64,000 bases of DNA from an uncultured bacterium (GTDB taxonomy: Bacteria; Patescibacteriota; Patescibacteriia; CAIQCM01). The number at the start of each line of letters is the position of its first letter. Within the stretch, counting starts at the first letter, position 1. The notes under the pieces are model-generated. The model did not search any database and was not told the DNA's origin. It worked only from the letters and a program-made list of their open reading frames with translations. The translations under genes and the position numbers were made by a program. This document shows, piece by piece, positions 3,213 through 17,670 of the stretch. The stretch lies in NCBI GenBank assembly GCA_963708045.1, contig OY970181.1:323740-387739 (forward strand). Reading direction: 5' to 3'.

Positions 3213-3287
3213 GCGGGTATCGTATAGCGGCTATTATGTGTCCTTGCCAAGGACAAGATGAGAGTTCGACTCTCTCTACCCGCACCA
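3213..3287 (+). tRNA. tRNA-Gly(GCC), CCA encoded
   Basis: GCGGGTA acceptor pairing with TACCCGC, anticodon stem TGTCC/GGACA with loop TTGCCAA (anticodon GCC), T-arm GAGAG-TTCGACT-CTCTC, 3' ACCA. Confidence 0.75.
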
Positions 3288-3451
3288 AAAACAATTTGTA
3301 TCGAGGGACTGAACAGGTCAACGCATTAGCGCGACCGACCTGCGTCAAACCCTCGAACGGAAAACAGTAACCTCACGGTTGCTGTTTTTGGTATCTATTT
3401 AATCCGTCATTGCGAGGAGGCCGAAGCCGACGCGGCAATCTCTTCTTTCCC

Positions 3452-3530
3452 CTCGCCCCACGCAGCGATAGCGGAGTGGGGAGAGGGTAGGCCTGCCCAG
3501 CGTAGCTTTAGCGGAGTTGGGGTGAGGGGC
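3452..3530. repeat. GC-rich imperfect tandem/hairpin repeat (units ...agcgatagcggagtgggg... / ...agctttagcggagttgggg...) between tRNA-Gly and the recombinase
   Basis: Seen directly; two about 40-nt related units with CCCC/GGGG hairpin ends. Confidence 0.6.
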
Positions 3531-3584
3531 CGTCGTTCGGCGATGACCAAAGAATAATATTATTCGAGCGAAGCGGTAGCGCAG

Positions 3585-4961
3585 TCAGAGAATTACCGAA
3601 ATCGTCAGTACTTTGTTTTTTAGCGTCAACCGGCTTTTCAAGTTCGTAAGCAACTCTCGTTTTTCGGTAATCGTCCCCTCGGTCAGCAAATAAGTTGCAT
3701 AAGCTCTAAGGTCAAAATTTTCTTTGGTCTTTTTATCCTCGCATTTCCCCAACGCAATCTTTCTAAACTTTTCGTACCTCGAAATCTCGGCAGCAAATTT
3801 ATGTTTTACCCCAATCTCATTCAAATCAAGTGTGTCGACGAGCTTCGTTAGCTGGTCAATTATTTCCTCCTCGCGCACATATCCGCATTGGCAATTTTTA
3901 TCTTTTGCTTTGGTACAACCGTAGTAAACATAGCGATGTGTTCCACCAGCTTTTTGCTCTTTGAATTTCTCGCAGGCGGTTACGCCCGACCCGCACAATC
4001 CGCAAGTAATGAGCTTCGTAAACGCGAACTCGCGATTGTTTTTGTTAATCTCGCTTCGGACAAGTTGCGCTTTAACCTTTTCAAAAAGCTCCGGCGTAAT
4101 AAGCGGCGTATGTTTGCCGGCATACCATTTTCCACTTCCGCGCGGATGTTCAAACACGCCGTAGTAAAAGGGATTCTTTAAAATAAGGTAAATATTTCCC
4201 AGCGCCAACGGCTTTCCATACTTGGTTTTAAAGTTAATATCGTATCGCAACCATTGATACAGTTTCCGCCCCGACCATCCATCGTTTCCGACTTTCTCAA
4301 ACATCTGCCGAACAATTGGCGCACGCACTGGATCAATTATCGCCTCGCACGGTTTATCTTTTATCTTCTCGTTCAAATATCCAGTCGGCGAAACCGCCGG
4401 ACGCAACCCCTGCTCGCATCGCGCCCTCATACCCCGCTTAACATTTTCGCTCTTGTTGTCATTTTCAAGCTTCGCTTGTGAGCAAAGGATCATCAGCATG
4501 AATTTCTCGCTCGGCGAGTTGGCGAATTTCTGGTTGAAAGTTCGTATCTCGATCAAGAGTTTTTGATCCATCAAATCGACCAGCGCCCCAAGGTCACCAG
4601 CATTCCGCGAAAGCCTGTCTGGTGCCCAAGTGATTATCCCACCAAACTTGCCCGCTCTGATGTCCTTGAGGAGCTCATTAAAGACCGGACGCTGGCCAAC
4701 CGCCTTGGCTGAATGGTTTTCTTTTCGAATCTCGGTTACTAGTAACCCCTCGCGCTCGGCAATCGCCAACATTTCTTTAATTTGGCTATCAATGGAAAGC
4801 ACCTGCATTTCCTCACTTTCGGTCGACTTCCGAGCGTATAGGCAATATCGGGTTTTAGGCATTATGGCGGCGTTTCCTTGGTTTTTGTCGTTCATACGAC
4901 CAAGTAATGCCGCAACCCTGTTGTGGCGTCTAGGCGGGGCTGTAGGTAAGTCCACTTTCAA
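3585..4961 (-). CDS. large serine recombinase (resolvase/integrase family with recombinase domain and zinc ribbon)
   Basis: N-terminal resolvase catalytic domain (YARKSTESE with catalytic Ser, DRLSRN), central recombinase domain, Cys-rich zinc ribbon (CGLCGSG...YYGCTKAKDKNCQCGY), C-terminal coiled region; probable true start at the internal Met (MPKTRYCLYARKS, about 4862). Confidence 0.85.
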   Translation of the reverse strand: MKVDLPTAPPRRHNRVAALLGRMNDKNQGNAAIMPKTRYCLYARKSTESEEMQVLSIDSQIKEMLAIAEREGLLVTEIRKENHSAKAVGQRPVFNELLKDIRAGKFGGIITWAPDRLSRNAGDLGALVDLMDQKLLIEIRTFNQKFANSPSEKFMLMILCSQAKLENDNKSENVKRGMRARCEQGLRPAVSPTGYLNEKIKDKPCEAIIDPVRAPIVRQMFEKVGNDGWSGRKLYQWLRYDINFKTKYGKPLALGNIYLILKNPFYYGVFEHPRGSGKWYAGKHTPLITPELFEKVKAQLVRSEINKNNREFAFTKLITCGLCGSGVTACEKFKEQKAGGTHRYVYYGCTKAKDKNCQCGYVREEEIIDQLTKLVDTLDLNEIGVKHKFAAEISRYEKFRKIALGKCEDKKTKENFDLRAYATYLLTEGTITEKRELLTNLKSRLTLKNKVLTISVIL

Positions 4962-5039
4962 AAATTAGCCCATTGAGCTATTCTTTAAGCACAACTTAAT
5001 ATTGCCTAAACCGCGCCGATGGCGAGGCATGGCAGAAAT

Positions 5040-5083
5040 CCCATGACAGATACTGAACCCCGCGTTTAGCGTCCTGTCATGGG
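5040..5083. repeat. inverted repeat/hairpin cccatgacag...ctgtcatggg upstream of the recombinase gene
   Basis: Perfect 10-bp arms seen in sequence; candidate recombination site or promoter element. Confidence 0.4.
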
Positions 5084-5133
5084 TAATATTCCGAAAGGAA
5101 TATTTGGCCGCAAGGCCTAGCTAGCGCGGGGCT

Positions 5134-5919
5134 TTGTGTATAATATTGACTCTTAAATTTATAAACACTATGAAAAAATATTTATCGGTTTTGCCCGCTA
5201 TTATTTTTTCTGTCTTTTTAATTCCGTCAACTATTGCAGTTTACGCATATAGTTTATCTGACACGGGTCAAACCGCATCCTTTACAGATACATATGGAGA
5301 GGACTCCGATTATCTTATTAATCCTCCTTCATACACTAAATTAAATTCGGCAGGTGAAACCGTGACTAGCGGCGAATGGGATATGGTGAAAGATAATCTG
5401 ACAGGATTAATTTGGGAAATGAAAACGGACGATGGAACAATTCATGACCAAAACAAACAGTTTAATAAGAGCGACACTCAAGCCGTTACGTCCGAATTAA
5501 ATTCAACAAAATTTGGTGGCTTTTCTGATTGGCGACTCCCGACAATTAAAGAACTTATAACAATAATTGATCATGATAAGTTATATCCATCCGCTGCAGT
5601 TAATACTGATTATTTCCCTAAATTGGTGGCAGCACCATATTGGTCTTCTACGAATCTTGCTGGTGGTGTAAATGTTGGATGGGCCGTTAATTTTAATCAT
5701 GGTAATCCTGAATTTGAGTATAGCAAAAACGTTTATCGCGTCATGGCCGTTAGGGGTACATCAGTTGGGTTGTCAGATCAGTTTGTAAATAATGGCGATG
5801 GGACCGTAGTAGATACTGATACTGGCTTAGTTTGGTCTTACGCTCCGTCAAGTAATGGCATGACATGGGACGATGCAATTTCATATAGTGAAAATTTATC
5901 ATTGTCCGGATTTGAATGA
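5134..5919 (+). CDS. secreted DUF1566 (WRLP-motif) domain protein, N-terminal fragment of a frameshifted gene
   Basis: Signal peptide/TM (MKKYLSVLPAIIFSVFLIPSTIAVYA); DUF1566 signature SDWRLPTIKEL; ORF ends at TGA 5917-5919 inside a second DUF1566 repeat. Confidence 0.6.
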   Translation: MCIILTLKFINTMKKYLSVLPAIIFSVFLIPSTIAVYAYSLSDTGQTASFTDTYGEDSDYLINPPSYTKLNSAGETVTSGEWDMVKDNLTGLIWEMKTDDGTIHDQNKQFNKSDTQAVTSELNSTKFGGFSDWRLPTIKELITIIDHDKLYPSAAVNTDYFPKLVAAPYWSSTNLAGGVNVGWAVNFNHGNPEFEYSKNVYRVMAVRGTSVGLSDQFVNNGDGTVVDTDTGLVWSYAPSSNGMTWDDAISYSENLSLSGFE

Positions 5920-7573
5920 TTGGCGTTTGCCCAGCCAGAAAGAGCTTTTTTCTATAGTTAATTACAATATTTTTGCACCAGTATTTGATAGAAATTATTT
6001 TTCGGTTCCATTAACATCGGCTTCTTACTGGACTTCAACAATATGCGGTGTTGAGGGTGATAAAAAATATGCCTACCGCATTGACGGTTACCAAGGAATT
6101 GGGGGTTGTATAAATACTCTGTTTGATAGTTCATCCATTTATGTGCGTGTTGTTCGTGGGGGGATTAATCAATTGACGCCAATTTGTACGTCTTGGACCT
6201 ATGGTGATTGGGGAACATGTGTAAACAACCAACGCTCGAGATCAATTGTTTCCTCAATGCCGTCGAATTGTATTGGCGGAATGCCCGTTTTAACCCAAAG
6301 TTGTCAACCTTCGCCCGTGGTATGTTCTTCGTGGACATATTCCGATTGGGGTATGTGCACAGAAGGACGACAGGCGAGATCTATAGCCTCAGCAACACCA
6401 ACGAATTGTTCTGGCGGAAATTCTGTATTAAGCCGTGAATGTAGTTCAGTGCCTGCGTGCACGGAAAATAATTGGACATCATCTCTATCGCCATCGTCGT
6501 GTCCTGCCATTGGACAGCAGACAAAACAATGGTCAAAAATAGGTCAATGTGATGGCGGTGTTTTCCACCAAACGCAAGAAACGATTTCATGCAATTATCA
6601 GATATCATCCTGCACGGATTTTATATATAGTGACTGGGGTGATTGCAGTTCAAGCGGCGTTCAATCAAGATTGATTTTGAACAGTTCGCCATCGAATTGC
6701 ACTGGCGGAAGTTCTGTCACAAGCCGGAGCTGTAATTATGTTCCTGCGTGTTCATCAGATATTTGGTCCTGCGGGAATTGGGGAGCTTGCAGTGCTGGGA
6801 ACATTCAATCAAGAATCTGCATAAAGACTTTTGACTGTCCTAGTGTACAGACGCCATCACCTGCAACAGAACAGAGTTGCACAACACAGCAAAATGTAGA
6901 ATCACAACCTCAAGCAACTAACAGCATTGACACGAATGTTAATACCAGCAATGCCGCTAATTTAAAAAGTGTAATCGAAGAAGAAACGGGCTTGGTTTCA
7001 TCGGTCGATAGAAATTTATCAAAGAAATTGGCTGGAAATATTTTGCTTCAAGTCGAAAATCATGGCCAAGCATGGTACGTTAATCCAACCAACCTAAATA
7101 AATATTATCTGCCTGACGGCCAAGCCGCTTATCAGGCGTTAAGAATTTTTGGTCTGGGAATAACCAATGCCGACTTAAGCAAGATACCAGTAGGGGTTGA
7201 AAGCCGTTTTTCCGACGCCGATAGCGATAATGACGGCTTGGCAGATAAGCTCGAGGAGGGATTAGGAACCGATCCCAACAATCCTGATACGGATGGGGAT
7301 GGTGTTTTGGACGGCGATGAGTTATTGAGTCGAGGTAGCAATCCATTGGGTACTGGCAAAATATCGACCGACAGTAACCTTGTTAGTAAATTGAGTGGTA
7401 AAATACTATTGCAAGTCCAATCAAGGGGTGAGGCATGGTATATCAATCCAAAAGATTCAAAGAGATATTATTTAAAAGATGGGAATGCAGCTTATCAGAT
7501 TATGCGCTTTCTCAGCTTGGGTATTACCAACGATAATATTCGAAAAATATCGGTCGGAATGTTGTCTAATTAA
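5873..7573 (+). CDS. continuation of the frameshifted DUF1566 protein: second DUF1566 domain, four thrombospondin type 1-like Cys repeats, thrombospondin type 3-like Ca-binding Asp repeats, two C-terminal about 60-aa repeats
   Basis: NDWRLPSQKEL continues the domain interrupted at 5919; four W-x-x-W-G-x-C...C..GG...R.C repeats (e.g. CSSWTYSDWGMCTEGRQARSIASATPTNCSGG); DADSDNDGLAD...DPNNPDTDGDGVLDGDE; duplicated LAGNILLQVENHGQAWYVNP.../LSGKILLQVQSRGEAWYINP... Confidence 0.6.
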   Translation: MQFHIVKIYHCPDLNDWRLPSQKELFSIVNYNIFAPVFDRNYFSVPLTSASYWTSTICGVEGDKKYAYRIDGYQGIGGCINTLFDSSSIYVRVVRGGINQLTPICTSWTYGDWGTCVNNQRSRSIVSSMPSNCIGGMPVLTQSCQPSPVVCSSWTYSDWGMCTEGRQARSIASATPTNCSGGNSVLSRECSSVPACTENNWTSSLSPSSCPAIGQQTKQWSKIGQCDGGVFHQTQETISCNYQISSCTDFIYSDWGDCSSSGVQSRLILNSSPSNCTGGSSVTSRSCNYVPACSSDIWSCGNWGACSAGNIQSRICIKTFDCPSVQTPSPATEQSCTTQQNVESQPQATNSIDTNVNTSNAANLKSVIEEETGLVSSVDRNLSKKLAGNILLQVENHGQAWYVNPTNLNKYYLPDGQAAYQALRIFGLGITNADLSKIPVGVESRFSDADSDNDGLADKLEEGLGTDPNNPDTDGDGVLDGDELLSRGSNPLGTGKISTDSNLVSKLSGKILLQVQSRGEAWYINPKDSKRYYLKDGNAAYQIMRFLSLGITNDNIRKISVGMLSN

Positions 7574-7582
7574 AAAAGATAT

Positions 7583-7873
7583 ATGAAGATAAATTATAAA
7601 ACAGAGCGTGGAAATTTTGATATAGAAATTACCGAGGGAAAGAGCGAGATTCTAGATGTGTATAATGATATTCGAATAGTTTATTCAATAAAAGTAAAGA
7701 ACACAGATAATCCATCTTGGGTTATAAATTTTTCCGACTTGATTGGGCGAATTGCAAAGGGGCAGAATAAGGAAAAATTGAACGATAAGATCGTCGATGA
7801 AGTTAAACGGCGAATTAATATGGACGAGACAGGAGATTTTTATATTGGTGATCCAACATTGGATTTAACTTGA
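7583..7873 (+). CDS. hypothetical small protein
   Basis: 96-aa ORF directly after the DUF1566 gene; no motif recognised. Confidence 0.4.
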   Translation: MKINYKTERGNFDIEITEGKSEILDVYNDIRIVYSIKVKNTDNPSWVINFSDLIGRIAKGQNKEKLNDKIVDEVKRRINMDETGDFYIGDPTLDLT

Positions 7874-7954
7874 AAGACAGCTGCCTCGTCATTGGCGTGT
7901 TGTATGCTTGTTAACGGTGGGCTGTTGGTGTATGGAGTAACATAGTCGCTTGTT

Positions 7955-8587
7955 TTGTTCAGAATTGTCGTTCTGAGTAGAAACAAGCGACGGAAACGGG
8001 TGCGAGCCCCGTACAGTCCATATATTAAAAATATGCACGAATCCGAAAAAATTGAAGAAGCAAAATATCATCTTTTGCGAATGAAAGATTCTTTAAACGA
8101 AGATGATATTTTTCGCTACGAATTAAATGCTTTTTTAGCATCTACACGTTCCGTTTTTCAATATGCGCTTGAAGAAATTCAACACCCTCCAACAGTCCCT
8201 AAAACATGGTATGACCAAGTTGTTAATCTGAGTAAATATGTTAAATTCTTTAAAGATAAACGCGATACGGTAATTCATCATAAACCAATAGAAACAGATA
8301 AAAATGTCGCTCTAGAAAATTTTGACACCGTACTCATAGAAGACGATGCAATCGCGATAGAAATACATGATTCAAATGAGGGTATTGTAGGGAGTTTTTC
8401 TACGATTAATACACCCCAAAATAGCGAAATAGGAGAAAGCGGTTCAAAAATTTCTTCAAGATGGTTTTTTGTCGATAGTCCGGTGGGTGATCCAAAAGAC
8501 AAGGAGGTCGTTTCGCTTTGTGAAAAATATTTGAAAGAGGCGGAATCTTTTGTTAGCGATGGTAAAACGAATGGATATTTAACCTAG
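7955..8587 (+). CDS. hypothetical protein (true start probably the internal Met near 8033)
   Basis: 210-aa ORF; N-terminal 26 codons are GC-rich and Arg/Lys-rich and likely spurious extension. Confidence 0.4.
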   Translation: MFRIVVLSRNKRRKRVRAPYSPYIKNMHESEKIEEAKYHLLRMKDSLNEDDIFRYELNAFLASTRSVFQYALEEIQHPPTVPKTWYDQVVNLSKYVKFFKDKRDTVIHHKPIETDKNVALENFDTVLIEDDAIAIEIHDSNEGIVGSFSTINTPQNSEIGESGSKISSRWFFVDSPVGDPKDKEVVSLCEKYLKEAESFVSDGKTNGYLT

Positions 8588-9146
8588 AATTATTCATAAA
8601 TATTTTTTTTGATCACCACTGATAGTTCAATAGCAATCACCAGACCAAAATAGTTGTTTATTGATCTGGTTAACCCGCTGTTAGAAGAACTGTGTCTGGT
8701 ATACGGGGTCCACTCAATAATTTGATGAGATAAGGTTTTTTGGGAATTACTGCTTAAGAAAGCCTAAAAGACAGTAAAATGAGACACCCTAAAATATTGA
8801 TTAATAGTGTCTCATTTGTCTCGTTTCTCAAAACAACTGTCGCATTTGTCGCATTTTGCCAAATCAACACCGACCTACTTGGGTCGGAAAGGTGGCCAAT
8901 CGAACCTCCTAAAACGCTTGTGGTGCTGGATAAGCGAAGTTCAAGACTGTGTCGGGGCACCAAAAATGATCTCAGTTCCCTGAGGTCATTTTTGTTTTGG
9001 CTCAGCGGGAAATAGTCATCATACGATAGCTGCGAGCGGGTTCGGCAAGAGCTTAATCTAGTTAGCCCGCCGATTATCTATTTCACGGGGGAATGTTTGT
9101 GTTTACACAAAAACTGCGCCAATCAAGATAGATCAGTAGTAAATAT

Positions 9147-9188
9147 AATTCTTCCCATAATGTCCGATCGGACATTATGGGAAGAATT
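9147..9188. promoter_or_regulatory. 42-bp perfect palindrome aattcttcccataatgtCCGATCGGacattatgggaagaatt at the 3' end of the regulator gene
   Basis: Seen directly; CGATCG core shared with palindromes at 9731 and 34037. Confidence 0.5.
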
Positions 9189-9720
9189 ATGTTGATGTTG
9201 TTATAAATAATAAAACCCACCTTTCAATTTTTAATAATTTAATGTATTGATTCATTTCTTTTGTGACATTAAAAGGCGTTGACCAAATACTTTTTTGAAT
9301 TTGTTTAAACCCCATCCTCTTAAGCGACCGTCTAAACATTGTTCTGGATTCTTTGGCCAACTCCGGTACATCAAAAGCGACGACAAGGTTTTTTCCTTTT
9401 GGCAGATATTTTCTCTTTTTAAAAATACAAATTTGCAGAGCGGCAATTTTGCCATGATCAGTTATTTTGACCAAGATATCATTATTTAATTTTTGTATTT
9501 CAATCCAGCCATTTTTATATATTTTACTAATTGGTTTAGGCAGGCCACCCGACTTATATTCAAGATATTGTCGCGCCGCACGCACGCTCATATTCCGCAT
9601 AAGAGAAGGGTAATTAAGAAAAAAGAATAGATCGTCAGTTTTTTGAAATATTTTAAGCAAAATCTCGGCTGTTACCGTTAGAGATTTTTTTGTTAAAAAT
9701 TTGATTCGTTTTTGCTCCAT
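9187..9720 (-). CDS. putative transcriptional regulator: N-terminal winged helix plus C-terminal Cas2-like/PaaX-middle-domain-like module
   Basis: C-terminal segment LVVAFDVPELAKESRTMFRRSLKRMGFKQIQKSIWSTP follows the Cas2/PaaX pattern (hydrophobic strand-D-hhhhh..R.R..L...GF...Q.SVW); N-terminal segment helix-turn-helix-like; start set at MEQKRIK (9720) since the longer ORF would run through the upstream palindrome. Confidence 0.45.
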   Translation of the reverse strand: MEQKRIKFLTKKSLTVTAEILLKIFQKTDDLFFFLNYPSLMRNMSVRAARQYLEYKSGGLPKPISKIYKNGWIEIQKLNNDILVKITDHGKIAALQICIFKKRKYLPKGKNLVVAFDVPELAKESRTMFRRSLKRMGFKQIQKSIWSTPFNVTKEMNQYIKLLKIERWVLLFITTST

Positions 9721-9730
9721 ATTATTTCTT

Positions 9731-9758
9731 CCTCTAATGCCCGATCGGGCTTTAGAGG
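9731..9758. promoter_or_regulatory. palindrome cctctaatgcCCGATCGGgctttagagg immediately upstream of the regulator start (candidate operator)
   Basis: Seen directly; 1 mismatch in 14-bp arms. Confidence 0.45.
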
Positions 9759-10241
9759 ATTTTGGTGTTGATAGCAAAATGTTTTTGCGATCCTTGATAT
9801 TTTTTAAATTAATTATTTTTTTATTTCGCGATTAACGACAATTTTTTTGATTACCATGATGACTGGTCGGCCGCTATGCAGCGTCAACCTCCATACTGGT
9901 AGATAGCAAAGAAAACGAATGATACAAATTACGCGTTGTTCACTGGTGCCATCCTTACTGATTCGTATATTTTGTGTTGCGTCGTTGTCTTAAGGCAATA
10001 AGAGTCGCATAAACGGCGGGGGCTTTCGCCCCCGCCGTAATGGCACTAATTTGTCGCGCTCCCGTTCTGGCCGTTTTGCGAGTGTTTAAAACCGCTGTCG
10101 TGTCCGTTTCGCCAGGAGCGGATGGATGTTTCAACAACGAATTTTCGGAGAGCTTCGGTGTGTTCGCCGGAAAGGTGAAAACGCGCGGCGAGCTCGCGGC
10201 ATTGGCCAGAAAGGAAGTCTAAATAGGTACTGGTTCTTTCT

Positions 10242-13168: not shown

Positions 13169-14320
13169 GAATCCCTAATTTCAGCCATATTTTGATTATT
13201 ACCTTGGCTCTTGACGGATATTTTTGAATAGAGTATTATATCCACATTATCCACAGAGCCCGACATACTATGAGCAGTAACTTAACTCCTAATATGAAAG
13301 CCAGCGGCTAGCCGGATATTTTGTGTCCCAATGCCCGCTGGTTTGCCAGCGGTTTTCTTTTTAGAAAAATCAGTTCGGAAACTTTTTAGAGGGTGGCCCC
13401 TTACAAAAGATTCCGAAAACCTACTTCCGCGGAGGGCGGAAAGAGCAAGTCCGAATTTAGGAACGTTGACAACCAAGCAAAGAGTAATAAATGTAAGTAC
13501 GAATTTTGGTTTCCAAAAGAAATCAAAATTTCAGTTTTGTTAACGTACAAAACTGGAGCATCTAAAAATAACGTCAACGAATTTTTGTGGTTCTCGTCGC
13601 AATGGAGCAATCCAAAGCGACTACCGTCCTAGTATCAGACTGGGACGGATCCAGAATTCTCTGGAAGACATTAAGGGCGTACGGTGGATGCCTCGGCATG
13701 GAATGCCTATGAAGGACGTAGCAGCCTGCGATAAGTCACGGCGAGGTGGCAAGCAACCTTTGACCCGTGAATCTCCGAATGAGGAAACTCAATCCGATGG
13801 AAGATCGGATTATCTTGTGCTGAATATATAGGTACAAGAAGGGAACTCGGCGAAGTGAAACATCTCAGTAGCCGAAGGAAAAGAAAGAAAGGTGCAATTT
13901 TTATATCGCCTTTCGCGATTCACATGTCTTCGGATGTGTGTTCCGCGATCTGCGGTAAAAAGTTGTGCTCATTCCCCTAGTAGCGGCGAGCGAACGGGGA
14001 AGAGCTTAAACTCCAAAGTGTTAAGCATGAAAACGGGTGATATGTCGAAAGATGTGTTATCGCGTATCGTGTGGCGGTTGTAGGGCCTCATATACTATGG
14101 AGTGTTCAGACGTAAGCGTTGTTCGCCTGCATCGAACAAGCAAGGGTTACAAACGATATCTTCCCAAGCAGAACGGCCTGGAACGGCCGGCCATAGACGG
14201 TGACAGCCCGGTACGCGAATGGGGTTATCCCTTTGCAGTTTATGTTCTAGAGTAACACGGGACTCGTGAAATCCTGTGTGAAGTCGGGAGGACTTTCTCC
14301 CAAAGCTAAATACATTCCAC

Positions 14321-14360
<40 letters not shown>

Positions 14361-14980
14361 CAGCCCGGAAGGGCGATGAAAAGTATCTGAAACCGTATGC
14401 TTACAAGGAGTGAGAGTGGATAGCAATATCCATGATCGCGTTCCTATTGAAGAATGAGCCAACGAGTTTGCTGTATGTGGCAAAGTTTAAGCCCGAGAGG
14501 GCGTAGACGTAGTGAAAGCGAGCGTGAAAGCGCGTTCTCACTTATCAACTTTTGCGGTTTACCGCAGAAGTTGTTGAGTGAGTGAGTCGCATACACAAGA
14601 CCCGAAACCGGGTGATCTAGCCATGGCCAGGATGAAGTTTTACGAAAGTAAAATGGAAGTCCGAACACATAAGCTGTGCAACACTTTGTGATGAGCTGTG
14701 GCTGGCGGTGAAATTCCAATCGAACTCGGTAATAGCTGGTTCTCCCCGAAATAGCTTGAGGGCTAGCGTCGGTTAATAACTAATTGGTGGTAGAGCACTG
14801 AATGGGGAACGGTGGAGTGATCCTACGTTTCCCAACCAACCTCCGAATGCCAGTTAGTGTTCCCGACAGTCAGCACGTGGGGGCTAAGCTCCACGGTGCG
14901 CAACGGAAACAGCCGTTGATCTCCAACTAAGGACCTTAAATCTATGCTAAGTGGAAAAGGATGTGGAACGACTCAAACAA

Positions 14981-15011
<31 letters not shown>

Positions 15012-15818
15012 TAAAGAAAGCGTAACAGCTCACTGGTCGAGTTATTCTGCGCCGAAAATATACCGGGGCTAAGCATAGTTCCGAAGTTGAGGGTTCTATA
15101 ATTAACTTTATAGAGCGGTAGGGGAGTGTTTGAAACGCATTGAAGGCGAAGACGTGAGTCCCGCTGGAGTGTTTCGAAGTACGAATGTTGGCATGAGTAG
15201 CAAAAATTGATGTGAGAACCATCAACGCCGTAAGAGGAAGGTTTCCTGGGCAACGCAAATCGGCTCAGGGTGAGGCGATCCTAAGACGAGGCCGAAAGGC
15301 GTAGTCGATGGAAAAGCAGGTTAATATTCCTGCCCCTCAATGGGTCACTACCCAGACTGACGCATCAAAAATACACGGGCGCTCTTTGGTTATGCGCGTG
15401 TCTTAATTGGGCAACTGATTAGGACGCAGTCTGAACCGAAAGGGGAAGACAATCCGTGAATGTATGGTGCCCAGAAAACGTCTGGAGACTATCCTATTGA
15501 GTCCGTACCGTAAACCGACACAGGTCCTCGGGCACAAGTGTGCCAAGGCGGACGAGAGAAACATCGTTCAGGAACTAGGCAAAAAAGTGGCCGTAACTTC
15601 GGGATAAGGCCTGCCCTATCGCAAGATAGGGTCGCAGCGAGCGTCTATGAACCGACTGTTTATCAAAAACACAGGTCCCTGCTAAGTCGCAAGACGATGT
15701 ATAGGGGCTGATGCCTGGCCAGTGTCAGAACGTTAAGGGGAGATGTTGACTCCGCAAGGAGAAGGCATTGAACCGAAGCGCTGATGAACGCCGGCGGTAA
15801 CTATAACCGTCCTAAGGT

Positions 15819-16086
15819 GGACAACACTGCCTTAGTGAGGTAACAGACCTCCTTCGAACTTTGACTAGCCATTGTCAAAGAGGTAGAAGAAAATTTGGCT
15901 ATTTCGGTGAACCTCCTTGTTTAAAAACAAGGACAATACCGAGGCAACCTGCAATGTGCAGAGAGTCCGTAGAGACTACACGCCAAAGTTTAACAATTGG
16001 TTAAATAAGATATAGTCCGAACTGCTTAGTAATAAGCAGAGCGTGATTGAACACCACGCCATTACAAAGTGTAATGTAACAACAAG
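15819..16086 (+). ncRNA. group I intron in 23S rRNA (insertion after CCTAAGGT, E. coli position about 1917)
   Basis: Exon sequence CCTAAGGT | intron | AGCGTAATCCCTTGTCGGGTGAGTTCCGACC matches the uninterrupted 23S; 5' exon ends in T and intron ends in G; conserved group I core elements R (cagagagtccgtagagactacacgcc) and S (aagatatagtccgaac) are present; 268 nt, no ORF. Confidence 0.75.
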
Positions 16087-16369
16087 AGCGTAATCCCTTG
16101 TCGGGTGAGTTCCGACCCGCACGAATGGCATAACGAGTTCATAACTGTCTTGACGATGTACTCGGCGAAATTGCAAGTGGCGTGAAGATGCGCTGTACTC
16201 GCAGCTGGACGAAAAGACCCCGTGAAGCTTTACTACTCCTTGCCATTGGATCATGTTTACTTATGTTCAGCGTAGGTGGGAGCCGCAAGGCGCCAATGAG
16301 ACACCACCCTTATGTTGATATGATTCTTACTGCAAACCGTGAATCCGGTTAGCGGAACAGTGGCTGGAA

Positions 16370-16400
<31 letters not shown>

Positions 16401-16621
16401 CAGTAACGGAGGCGTTTACAAAGGTAGGCTTGGCTCGGATGGAAATCGAGCTCAAAGTGCAAACGCAGAAGCCTGCTTGACTGCGAGGGTGATGGCCCGA
16501 GCAGAGACGAAAGTCGAAGTTAGTGATCCGACGGTCCCTCAGAGGAGGGCCGAAGCTCAACAGACAAAAGCTACTCCGGGGATAACAGGCTGATCTTGCC
16601 CAAGAGTCCATATCGACGGCA

Positions 16622-16681
<60 letters not shown>

Positions 16682-16738
16682 TGGCTGTTCGCCAATTAAA
16701 GCGGTACGTGAGCTGGGTTCAGAACGTCGTGAGACAGT

Positions 16739-17114
16739 GAGAATACCCGCGCTGTCTAAAAATCAGATCCAAGTCGCAATTCACAAGATGCGAAAGGATT
16801 CCGGTGTTGTCGCAAGATAACACTGGAGCTAAATGCTGGAAAATCTGGTCCGATCTTCTTTGGAGAGAAGATCAAAGAACTCGCACTAGTCGCGCAAGCG
16901 ACTGACAACGTGACGAGCGCAGACAATCAGCAGGAAAGGTTCTTCCATTACACGTAGAACAATCAACAATGGAAAGAAAATCCTCAGAGACTACACGCCT
17001 GATAGCTAGAAACCCCTAGTGAAAGATATAGTCCGAACTCTATGGCGACATAGAGAGTGCATCAGAAATGATGCGCCGGTTCAAAATTTATTTTTTGAAT
17101 TCGCAACATAATTG
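16739..17114 (+). ncRNA. group I intron in 23S rRNA (insertion after GAGACAGT, E. coli position about 2593, the I-CreI-type site)
   Basis: Exon GTCGTGAGACAGT | intron | TCGGTCTCCTATCC; intron ends in G; R (cagagactacacgcc) and S (aagatatagtccgaac) elements shared with the first intron; 376 nt, no ORF. Confidence 0.75.
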
Positions 17115-17550
17115 TCGGTCTCCTATCCACTGCGAGCGTTGAAACTTGAAGGGATGCTTCCCTAGTACGAGAGGACCGGGAAGCACGAACCTCCCGTGTA
17201 CGTGTTGTCCTACCAAGGGCATGGCACGGTAGCGGAGTTCGGAGGCGATAAGCGCTGAAAGCATCTAAGCACGAAGCGCCCCCTAAGATTAGGTTTCGTT
17301 ATAGACTCCTCGGAGACGACGAGGTTGATAGGCAGTAGGTGTAAGGCCCGCAAGGGTTTGAGCCGAGCTGTACTAATCGGTCGAGTTCTCCAGGGAACTC
17401 TGGTAAAAAATCAGAGAACCACAAAAACGCGCTGAAGTTATTTCAGTTGCCGTACTTTACATTTAGTGAATATCGCGTCTTTTTTGATACGGTATTTGCG
17501 AACCAACGAGCGTAGCAGCGTCTTCGTTCTGTTATAAAATAAGTTCAGAG

Positions 17551-17670
17551 TCTTGGTGACCCAACCGCACTGGTCACACCCGTTCCCATCTCGAACACGG
17601 CAGTTAAGCAGTGCAGGGCTGATGATACTTGGGGCCAACCCGTCCCTGGGAAAGTAGGCCGTTGCCAAGA
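17551..17670 (+). rRNA. rrf: 5S rRNA
   Basis: TTGGTGACC...GGTCACACCCGTTCCCATCTCGAACACGGCAGTTAAGC...GGGAAAGTAGG...GCCAAGA; flanking processing stem aagttcagagtc/gaccctgaactt. Confidence 0.85.

Follow-up and report, generated by a model that had tools for sequence, protein, structure and literature searches.

A stretch of 64,000 nucleotides (nt) from an uncultured member of the Patescibacteriota (contig OY970181.1 of assembly GCA_963708045.1, positions 323,740 to 387,739 of the forward strand), referred to here as the window, very probably contains an integrative element of about 5.7 kb at positions 3288-8966, inserted by a large serine recombinase (LSR) at the CCA end of a tRNA-Gly(GCC) gene and lodged between the tRNA and its own terminator. 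The tRNA that served as the integration target lies on the plus strand at 3213-3287 (ARAGORN; Rfam tRNA, 59.5 bits), shares 94-95% identity with its counterparts in syntenic relatives, and contributes its last 6 nt (GCACCA) to the recombination core. At the left boundary the tRNA gene is intact and the integrase gene adjoins it. An initial annotation, made from the letters of the window, had proposed a tRNA-associated integrated element at 3213-7573. The existence of such an element is supported by a sister element, by empty sites and by the geometry of the recombinase family, but its extent had to be revised, since homology to the sister element ends only at 8966.

The sister element, L081, is the closest relative of the window element, with a recombinase that is 93% identical at the amino acid (aa) level; a third relative, L214, has a recombinase of 85% aa identity. 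L081 adjoins tRNA-Lys(TTT), and only two blocks of DNA are common to it and the window. The first (window 3282-4949) starts at the last six bases of both tRNAs (GCACCA), continues with AAAACAATTTGTATCG, and extends to about 55 nt beyond the start of the recombinase gene, on its upstream side; L214 has the same inner limit, at 4938. The second (window ~8770-8966) ends with ...GTGTCGGGGCACCAAAAA in both elements, after which different terminator hairpins follow. The end blocks of the two elements are 81-83% identical. Because L081 occupies another tRNA, the points where this homology begins and ceases locate the two ends of the window element.

Syntenic relatives, fetched from metagenomes by means of the flanking PolX gene (69-81% identical), keep the order of the backbone: tRNA-Leu(TAA), PolX, a hypothetical gene in some cases, tRNA-Gly(GCC), and further on the LTD protein and tRNA-Leu(TAG). 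An unoccupied site, for which the initial annotation had suggested comparing related genomes, is found at six loci (L134, L135, L136, L144, L140, and L211, of which L134 and L135 gave identical results), hence in no fewer than five relatives. In each, tRNA-Gly is followed directly by AAAA(A), a hairpin, and a T-run, and the recombinase, the LOOT RNA discussed below, the Lcl_C protein, and the two small open reading frames (ORFs) of the window element are missing. DNA homology between these sites and the window stops at 3291-3294. On the far side of the element, immediately right of 8966, the terminator scan finds AAAA, a hairpin with the arms TGATCTCAG and CTGAGGTCA, and a T-run (8961-8994, plus strand), in host DNA just outside the element. 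This segment has the form expected of the original, displaced terminator of tRNA-Gly, with the same succession of AAAA, hairpin, and T-run as in the empty sites. Rejoining the 3′ half of tRNA-Gly to 8967-9000 gives the reconstructed attB, whose junction reads CTCTCTACCCGCACCAAAAATGATCTCAGTTCC. These loci demonstrate a presence/absence polymorphism at tRNA-Gly.

Both breakpoints carry the same 10-nt core, GCACCAAAAA, which occurs exactly twice in the window, each time on the plus strand. One copy, the attL core at 3282-3291, consists of the tRNA 3′ end plus AAAA and lies where homology to L081 starts; the other, the attR core at 8957-8966, lies where that homology stops. The initial annotation had seen no direct repeat of the tRNA 3′ end, but the second copy repeats its final 6 nt and marks the second boundary, convincingly only in combination with the comparative evidence. 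A direct-repeat search of 22 loci found no repeats of the tRNA junction beyond chance, and within the window a chance 11-mer scored above the true 10-mer. In elements at Ser tRNAs the identity core is shorter still, at 6 nt (CCGCCA). Such cores of 6-10 nt fit a serine rather than a tyrosine integrase, so that the "classic layout" described in the initial annotation suits the element only in part. Joining the element ends (8916-8966 plus 3292-3340) gives the reconstructed attP, with the junction GACTGTGTCGGGGCACCAAAAACAATTTGTATCGAGGG; by inspection only, the joined ends display GTTCA...TGAAC spaced 51 nt.

The left-end block (3291-3356, plus strand), delineated by motif comparison and folding, consists of ACAATTTGTATCG, in which TATCG is invariant, and an imperfect hairpin at 3301-3356 that contains GCGACC. 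At more than 20 loci the same motif stands immediately 3′ of the CCA, at tRNAs for Ser, Arg, Lys, Leu, and Gly. The DNA next to the tRNA is thus conserved from one tRNA to another, and two classes of it can be told apart, the first reading (N2-4)ACAATTTnnTATCG...G(C/T)GACC and the second AGTGAnAGGTGTTTnnnGACCGTG. The class 1 motif abuts the CCA even where the tRNA lies 0.8-4.5 kb beyond the recombinase, in which case the cargo is found on that side. Single-sequence folds of ten left ends (the window and nine others) all gave an imperfect hairpin of 55-70 nt that starts 0-13 nt after the CCA and is followed by an intrinsic terminator. Fold z-scores were -6.8 for the window and -3.9 to -6.4 for the other nine, and the arm sequences differ. 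When 14 left ends were aligned with MAFFT and passed to RNAalifold, no consensus structure emerged, the arms being too divergent to align. The terminator borne by the window element occupies 3357-3392 on the plus strand (terminator scan, 3360-3389, and fold), and its counterpart is present in every left end examined. Because all folded left ends carry a hairpin and then an intrinsic terminator, the element is seen to replace the 3′ trailer and terminator of tRNA-Gly with a structured trailer and terminator of its own (3301-3392). Elsewhere in the window, on the minus strand at ~440-460 and 3′ of the terminator of tRNA-Leu(TAA) (494-576), GACAATTATTTATCG resembles the left-end motif but is separated from the end of the tRNA by about 36 nt; a chance match and an old scar are both conceivable.

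Between the element terminator and the recombinase stop codon lie several repeats that resemble repetitive extragenic palindromes (REPs), recognized by repeat search and comparison with L081 (3406-3530, with one repeat at 3406-3440 and tandem hairpins at 3449-3487 and 3495-3521). The GC-rich imperfect repeat at 3452-3530 picked out by the initial annotation is real and consists of two 27-nt units of 78% identity, each a hairpin. It had also been put forward as a possible marker of attR, and this role was rejected, as the repeats are variable in L081 and dispersed in the contigs of relatives. The L081 spacer has deletions of 30 nt and 15 nt and retains one repeat unit only, and near-identical REP-like copies stand at unrelated places in relatives (L134, 17879-17915; L140, 9774-9866; L138, 13101-13148 and 18322-18362). 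Within the window the repeats at 3406-3440 and 3449-3530 each occur once only.

The right end is a conserved block at 8766-8966 that is 81% identical to L081 6879-7096. It is regarded as non-coding, since no reading frame survives the indels that distinguish it from L081; ORFs called across it are either broken in this way or spurious-looking. The block contains inverted and direct repeats of a GAGACA type at 8777-8787, 8807-8827, and 8838-8857, which within the window are confined to this block and which recur in the right ends of compact elements of the family. It has no Rfam match, and its fold z-scores are modest (-2.2 and -3.4). Its last part is an arm resembling a tRNA 3′ end (8936-8962), ending in GGGGCACCA. 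By inspection, the final 27 nt of the right end resemble the segment of a tRNA from T-loop to CCA, matching tRNA-Gly in register at 16 of 27 positions, and the L081 copy likewise matches its own tRNA-Lys at 17 of 26.

The recombinase is encoded on the minus strand and converges on tRNA-Gly, its 3′ end facing the tRNA across a spacer of 297 nt, close to the roughly 300 nt given in the initial annotation. The ORF reported there (3585-4961) exists, but alignment with five homologues sets the coding start at the ATG at 4895, which yields an intact protein of 436 aa (3585-4895). The catalytic domain and zinc ribbon named earlier are confirmed by Pfam (Resolvase PF00239, 4e-22; Recombinase PF07508, 3.5e-12; Zn_ribbon_recom PF13408, 8.4e-09), and the protein matches the integrase family PHROG 95 at 4e-69. 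The motifs YARKSTESEE and APDRLSRN are invariant in six homologues. The nearest solved structure is that of the SPbeta integrase YokA/SprA, with similarity over residues 52-405, and the TP901-1 catalytic domain is also similar. A serine transposon of the IS607 type was ruled out by the LSR architecture with its N-terminal catalytic domain and by the lack of TnpB; the sole match of this type, to the PHROG 6620 "transposon" class, is weak (0.003).

Upstream of the recombinase start, a conserved leader with a small hairpin (4896-4949, minus strand) closes the conserved recombinase module, and homology to L081 and L214 stops at 4938-4949. Across the family (L002-L075) the leader motif comprises GGATGACGCAA, a short covarying hairpin, and GTCCAG ... 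GTTGRTAAC, and a short distance past it the conservation between elements ceases. A role as a promoter or in translational control is possible. Three matches of 8-9 nt at one position had suggested that the leader segment might act as a guide matching the neighboring tRNA. This was rejected because the segment is a small covarying hairpin, and the window and L081 have it in identical form despite their different tRNAs.

Relatives of the recombinase number in the thousands (65-93% identity) across lineages of the candidate phyla radiation (CPR), and the close protein relatives all come from metagenome-assembled genomes of Patescibacteria. The genome of the window itself has the look of a CPR member. 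The family was surveyed in 80 genome loci and 33 IMG/VR viral contigs that bear recombinase homologues. A tRNA was present downstream of the recombinase in 53 genome loci; without exception the closest such tRNA is on the opposite strand and converges with the recombinase, and in 21 loci it lies within 400 nt. The tRNAs concerned are those for Arg, Lys, Val, Leu, Ser, and Gly, joined on viral contigs by Asp, Glu, and Gln. In about 17 genome loci, two ParB-/N6_N4-type methylases and then TerS and TerL stand directly upstream of the recombinase, with LexA-like repressors nearby; TerL was detected on 20 of the 33 viral contigs, and in other loci type I restriction-modification genes lie beside the recombinase. 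On the strength of these neighbors, the family is taken to comprise the integrases of CPR temperate phages and of smaller islands. These counts demonstrate a tie to tRNA ends and to phages throughout the family. The window locus is in itself an ordinary small genomic island; the family is less so, with its use of the CCA end of many tRNAs, its compact elements and tandem arrays, and its link to LOOT, an orphan structured RNA.

The members of the family extend from compact elements, by way of islands that carry restriction-modification genes, to temperate phages with the recombinase behind the terminase genes. Where both ends are visible, the compact elements measure 2.9-3.5 kb; they contain the recombinase with one or two small ORFs. 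Among relatives of the Ser-tRNA type, nine right ends are fixed at 417-419 nt from the recombinase and finish in ...ACACCGCCA; four of the nine abut unrelated host terminators, and the other five abut another left end. Right ends set against left ends in this manner give tandem copies and natural attP-like junctions. Several genomes or contigs (L016/L019, L009/L018, L043, L063, L007, and L096) hold at least two recombinase copies, some of which are arranged in tandem and some in opposite orientation. An ORF of about 100 aa, conserved among the loci concerned, is found on the same strand upstream of the recombinase in L033 and L061 (9640-9942 in both), where it is directly adjacent, and in L058 (9274-9612), where it is ~390 nt away; it is a possible candidate for a directionality factor. 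In L216, a recombinase copy of 76% identity is integrated at tRNA-Leu(TAG), and about 1 kb upstream of it there is a gene for an RVT_1 reverse transcriptase (127-1059).

From established LSR biochemistry, the following course of integration can be inferred. Dimers of the recombinase would bind attP, formed by the joined element ends, with the P arm at 8936-8962 (resembling a tRNA from T-loop to CCA) and a P′ arm beginning ACAATTTGTATCG..., and would likewise bind attB, composed of the tRNA 3′ half, AAAA, and the terminator. Strand exchange at a 2-bp crossover inside GCACCAAAAA would then generate attL at 3282-3291 and attR at 8957-8966. The sequence of the tRNA remains unchanged, and the element brings in the new structured 3′ trailer and terminator (3301-3392). 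Integration would be directional, and excision would need a partner protein.

The cargo is dominated by a secreted protein gene on the plus strand (5170-7573) with a signal peptide, Lcl_C (DUF1566) domains, Cys-rich repeats, and bacterial TSP3 repeats according to Pfam. It corresponds to the low-GC secreted multi-repeat gene of the initial annotation, and its GC content (0.38-0.45), signal peptide, and repeats bear that description out. It is not a single open gene, as one extra base near 5915, inside an Lcl_C domain, splits it into the ORFs 5134-5919 and 5873-7573. Two further plus-strand ORFs, of 96 aa (7583-7873) and 210 aa (7955-8587), are absent from the syntenic relatives and have no match in Pfam, PHROGs, or PADLOC. 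The cargo of L081 is similarly devoid of matches in these three databases, except for one helix-turn-helix protein of 213 aa. Searches of 3288-8966 with Pfam and PHROGs found no virion structural or packaging genes (terminase, portal, capsid, or tail).

Several observations weigh against the integration of 3288-8966 as a mobile unit with these limits. The nearest syntenic relatives have only 69-81% PolX identity, which means that the empty sites come from other species and not from strains of the same one. Exact-sequence queries found neither the reconstructed attB in the metagenome contigs searched nor a circular or tandem attP junction of the window element in the IMG/VR viral contigs searched. 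The 10-nt core repeat is by itself non-significant, with at least two matches in 12 of 100 shuffles, and it gains weight because its two copies coincide with the two homology breakpoints. No directionality factor was recognized among the cargo ORFs with Pfam, PHROGs, or PADLOC, and the cargo gene is frameshifted, so that this copy may be immobile. Directionality factors share no common sequence signature. Finally, GC content stays at 0.35-0.36 up to ~10000, beyond the right end at 8966, and a PaaX/Cas2-like gene at 9187-9777 has no counterpart in the syntenic relatives.

Some of these points would suit an element that integrated as described but has since decayed into an immobile remnant of a CPR prophage or satellite, with a recombinase that is kept and can no longer move it. 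This alternative is rather unlikely. It would be in keeping with the frameshifted main cargo gene, the lack of a recognizable directionality factor and of a circular junction in viral contigs, and the absence of structural and terminase genes that many relatives possess. Against decay stand the intact recombinase ORF with its invariant motifs and the 81-83% conservation of both end blocks in a sister element at another tRNA. In addition, the recurrence of 2.9-3.5 kb elements at many tRNAs and in tandem arrays suggests that small forms are mobile.

A larger or composite island, extending past 8966 to ~10200 and including the PaaX/Cas2-like gene, is improbable. It would accommodate the low GC content and the gene absent from relatives, and tandem insertions are common in the family. 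However, the similarity to L081 breaks off precisely at 8966, and the sequence that follows, AAAA with a hairpin and T-run, resembles the native tRNA-Gly terminator of the empty sites. No left- or right-end motifs occur in 8967-10240, and the interval from tRNA-Gly to the LTD gene also varies among relatives that have no insert. The low-GC ORF itself (9187-9777) matches the PaaX middle or Cas2-like domain at its C-terminus, and just past it lies a perfect palindrome with a 20-bp stem (9146-9189).

It is very improbable that the recombinase is a resident regulator of the invertase or resolvase type, or a domesticated gene that merely happens to lie near the tRNA, for although some sources label its homologues "DNA invertase Pin-like" and its catalytic domain has a weaker match to PHROG 125 "DNA invertase", it has the full LSR architecture, its relatives, bounded by shared end motifs, adjoin tRNAs of nine or more different specificities and show presence/absence polymorphism, tandem copies, and positions beside terminase genes on viral contigs, and no inverted repeats flank an invertible segment.

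Between the recombinase module and the cargo of the integrated element lies a full-length LOOT RNA (Rfam RF03000) at 5003-5118 on the plus strand, transcribed away from the recombinase. The match scores 77.1 bits against a gathering threshold of 46.4 and spans model positions 1-121 with all six helices. The hairpin at 5040-5083 noted in the initial annotation is real, but it is helix P2 of this RNA and no stand-alone structure. LOOT was reportedly described by Weinberg et al. in 2017 as a candidate structured RNA from CPR metagenomes, with no function assigned. No published account of its genomic context was found; the original 2017 supplement lay outside that search, so prior notice there is possible.

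A covariance model built from the window copy and the L009 copy on the Rfam structure was used to scan the surveyed loci. Of the 80 genome loci, 16 contain LOOT, and 12 of these have it within ~1 kb of the recombinase; it was also found on 9 of the 33 viral contigs with a recombinase. A sequence-pattern search added two further viral contigs, one of which carries LOOT upstream of a portal-like gene; the strict pattern in IMG/VR otherwise matched mostly by chance, only 2-3 of 19 matches being real. The 5′ end of LOOT points toward the recombinase in every case, and with respect to the tRNA the RNA is invariably found on the side of the element. Of 28 copies, 26 are followed on the same strand by an ORF that begins 20-90 nt downstream. 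The ORFs in this position are hypervariable; an N-terminal membrane or signal segment is present in at least 15, and others are methylase- or nuclease-like. The Lcl_C gene of the window sits in this variable slot.

Two proposals concerning the family are advanced jointly and tentatively, with the chances somewhat against both holding together. The recombinases may recognize a generic tRNA 3′ end, from T-loop to CCA, so that insertion behind almost any tRNA would be possible both for 3-kb elements that seem to lack a directionality factor and for whole CPR phages. LOOT, in turn, may be a functional part of these elements, either as an expression or stability platform for a hypervariable slot of lysogenic-conversion or defense genes or as a factor in the life cycle of the recombinase or phage.

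The family shares the succession of Resolvase, Recombinase, and zinc-ribbon domains with phage-type LSRs such as those of phiC31, Bxb1, TP901-1, A118, and SPbeta (SprA/YokA), along with a very short core (6-10 nt here) and the location of the gene at a prophage edge. The usual targets of the serine integrases characterized to date are intergenic sites or genes that encode proteins. The present family differs from the phage-type enzymes in targeting the CCA end of many tRNAs, in the shortness of its protein (436 aa), and in the compactness of its elements, which leave no obvious room for a directionality factor. Other small elements mobilized by LSRs include Tn4451 (TnpX), Tn5397 (TndX), and SCCmec (CcrAB); the target of SCCmec is a conserved housekeeping gene, at its 3′ end. 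Tandem arrays are a likeness to SCCmec. The elements described here differ in targeting the tRNA CCA and in using one recombinase, not two, and the family also serves as the integrase of bona fide phages. In mycobacteriophages, tRNA attB sites are a hallmark of tyrosine integrases, with cores of 25-76 bp (PMC8092301). P4-like and L5-like islands and prophages with tyrosine integrases resemble the window element in their site at the tRNA 3′ end, in an integrase gene next to attL that reads toward the tRNA, in the preservation of the tRNA, and in the use of a hotspot. They differ in recombinase class and core length (~10 nt here as against 25-76 bp), and the insertion described here lies at or after the CCA and brings a new trailer and terminator instead of a copy of the tRNA 3′ half.

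If these proposals are correct, a widespread family of serine integrases that lands precisely on CCA ends and leaves the tRNA intact would represent a new targeting logic for an enzyme class prized as a source of genome-engineering tools, whose natural targets are mostly idiosyncratic genes. Through the family, lysogeny and the horizontal flow of genes would also become easier to approach in CPR bacteria, which are uncultured. LOOT gains a genomic context, inside elements and phages and at the head of a variable cargo slot, in which its function becomes testable. For the genome at hand, a small island is delimited, and the apparent adhesin becomes foreign, damaged cargo.

Other relatives show the 3′ end of tRNA-Gly to be a hotspot at which unrelated elements also insert. 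L138 contains a 3.8-kb insert (4304-8175) that encodes an 875-aa AAA_21/SMC-like protein and is flanked by a 31-nt tRNA repeat. L141 (161-400) and L143 have a 105-nt insert, in the manner of a scar, with a 17-nt direct repeat at tRNA-Gly, and L137 (1050-2646) has an unrelated LSR (32% identity) 347 nt from the tRNA. Farther along the window, the 23S rRNA gene (13661-17670) contains two group I introns, at 15809-16039 and 16729-17055, and is followed by 5S rRNA. No 16S rRNA gene lies upstream of it; it is preceded by tRNA-Leu(TAG), in the unlinked, intron-bearing rRNA arrangement typical of CPR bacteria.

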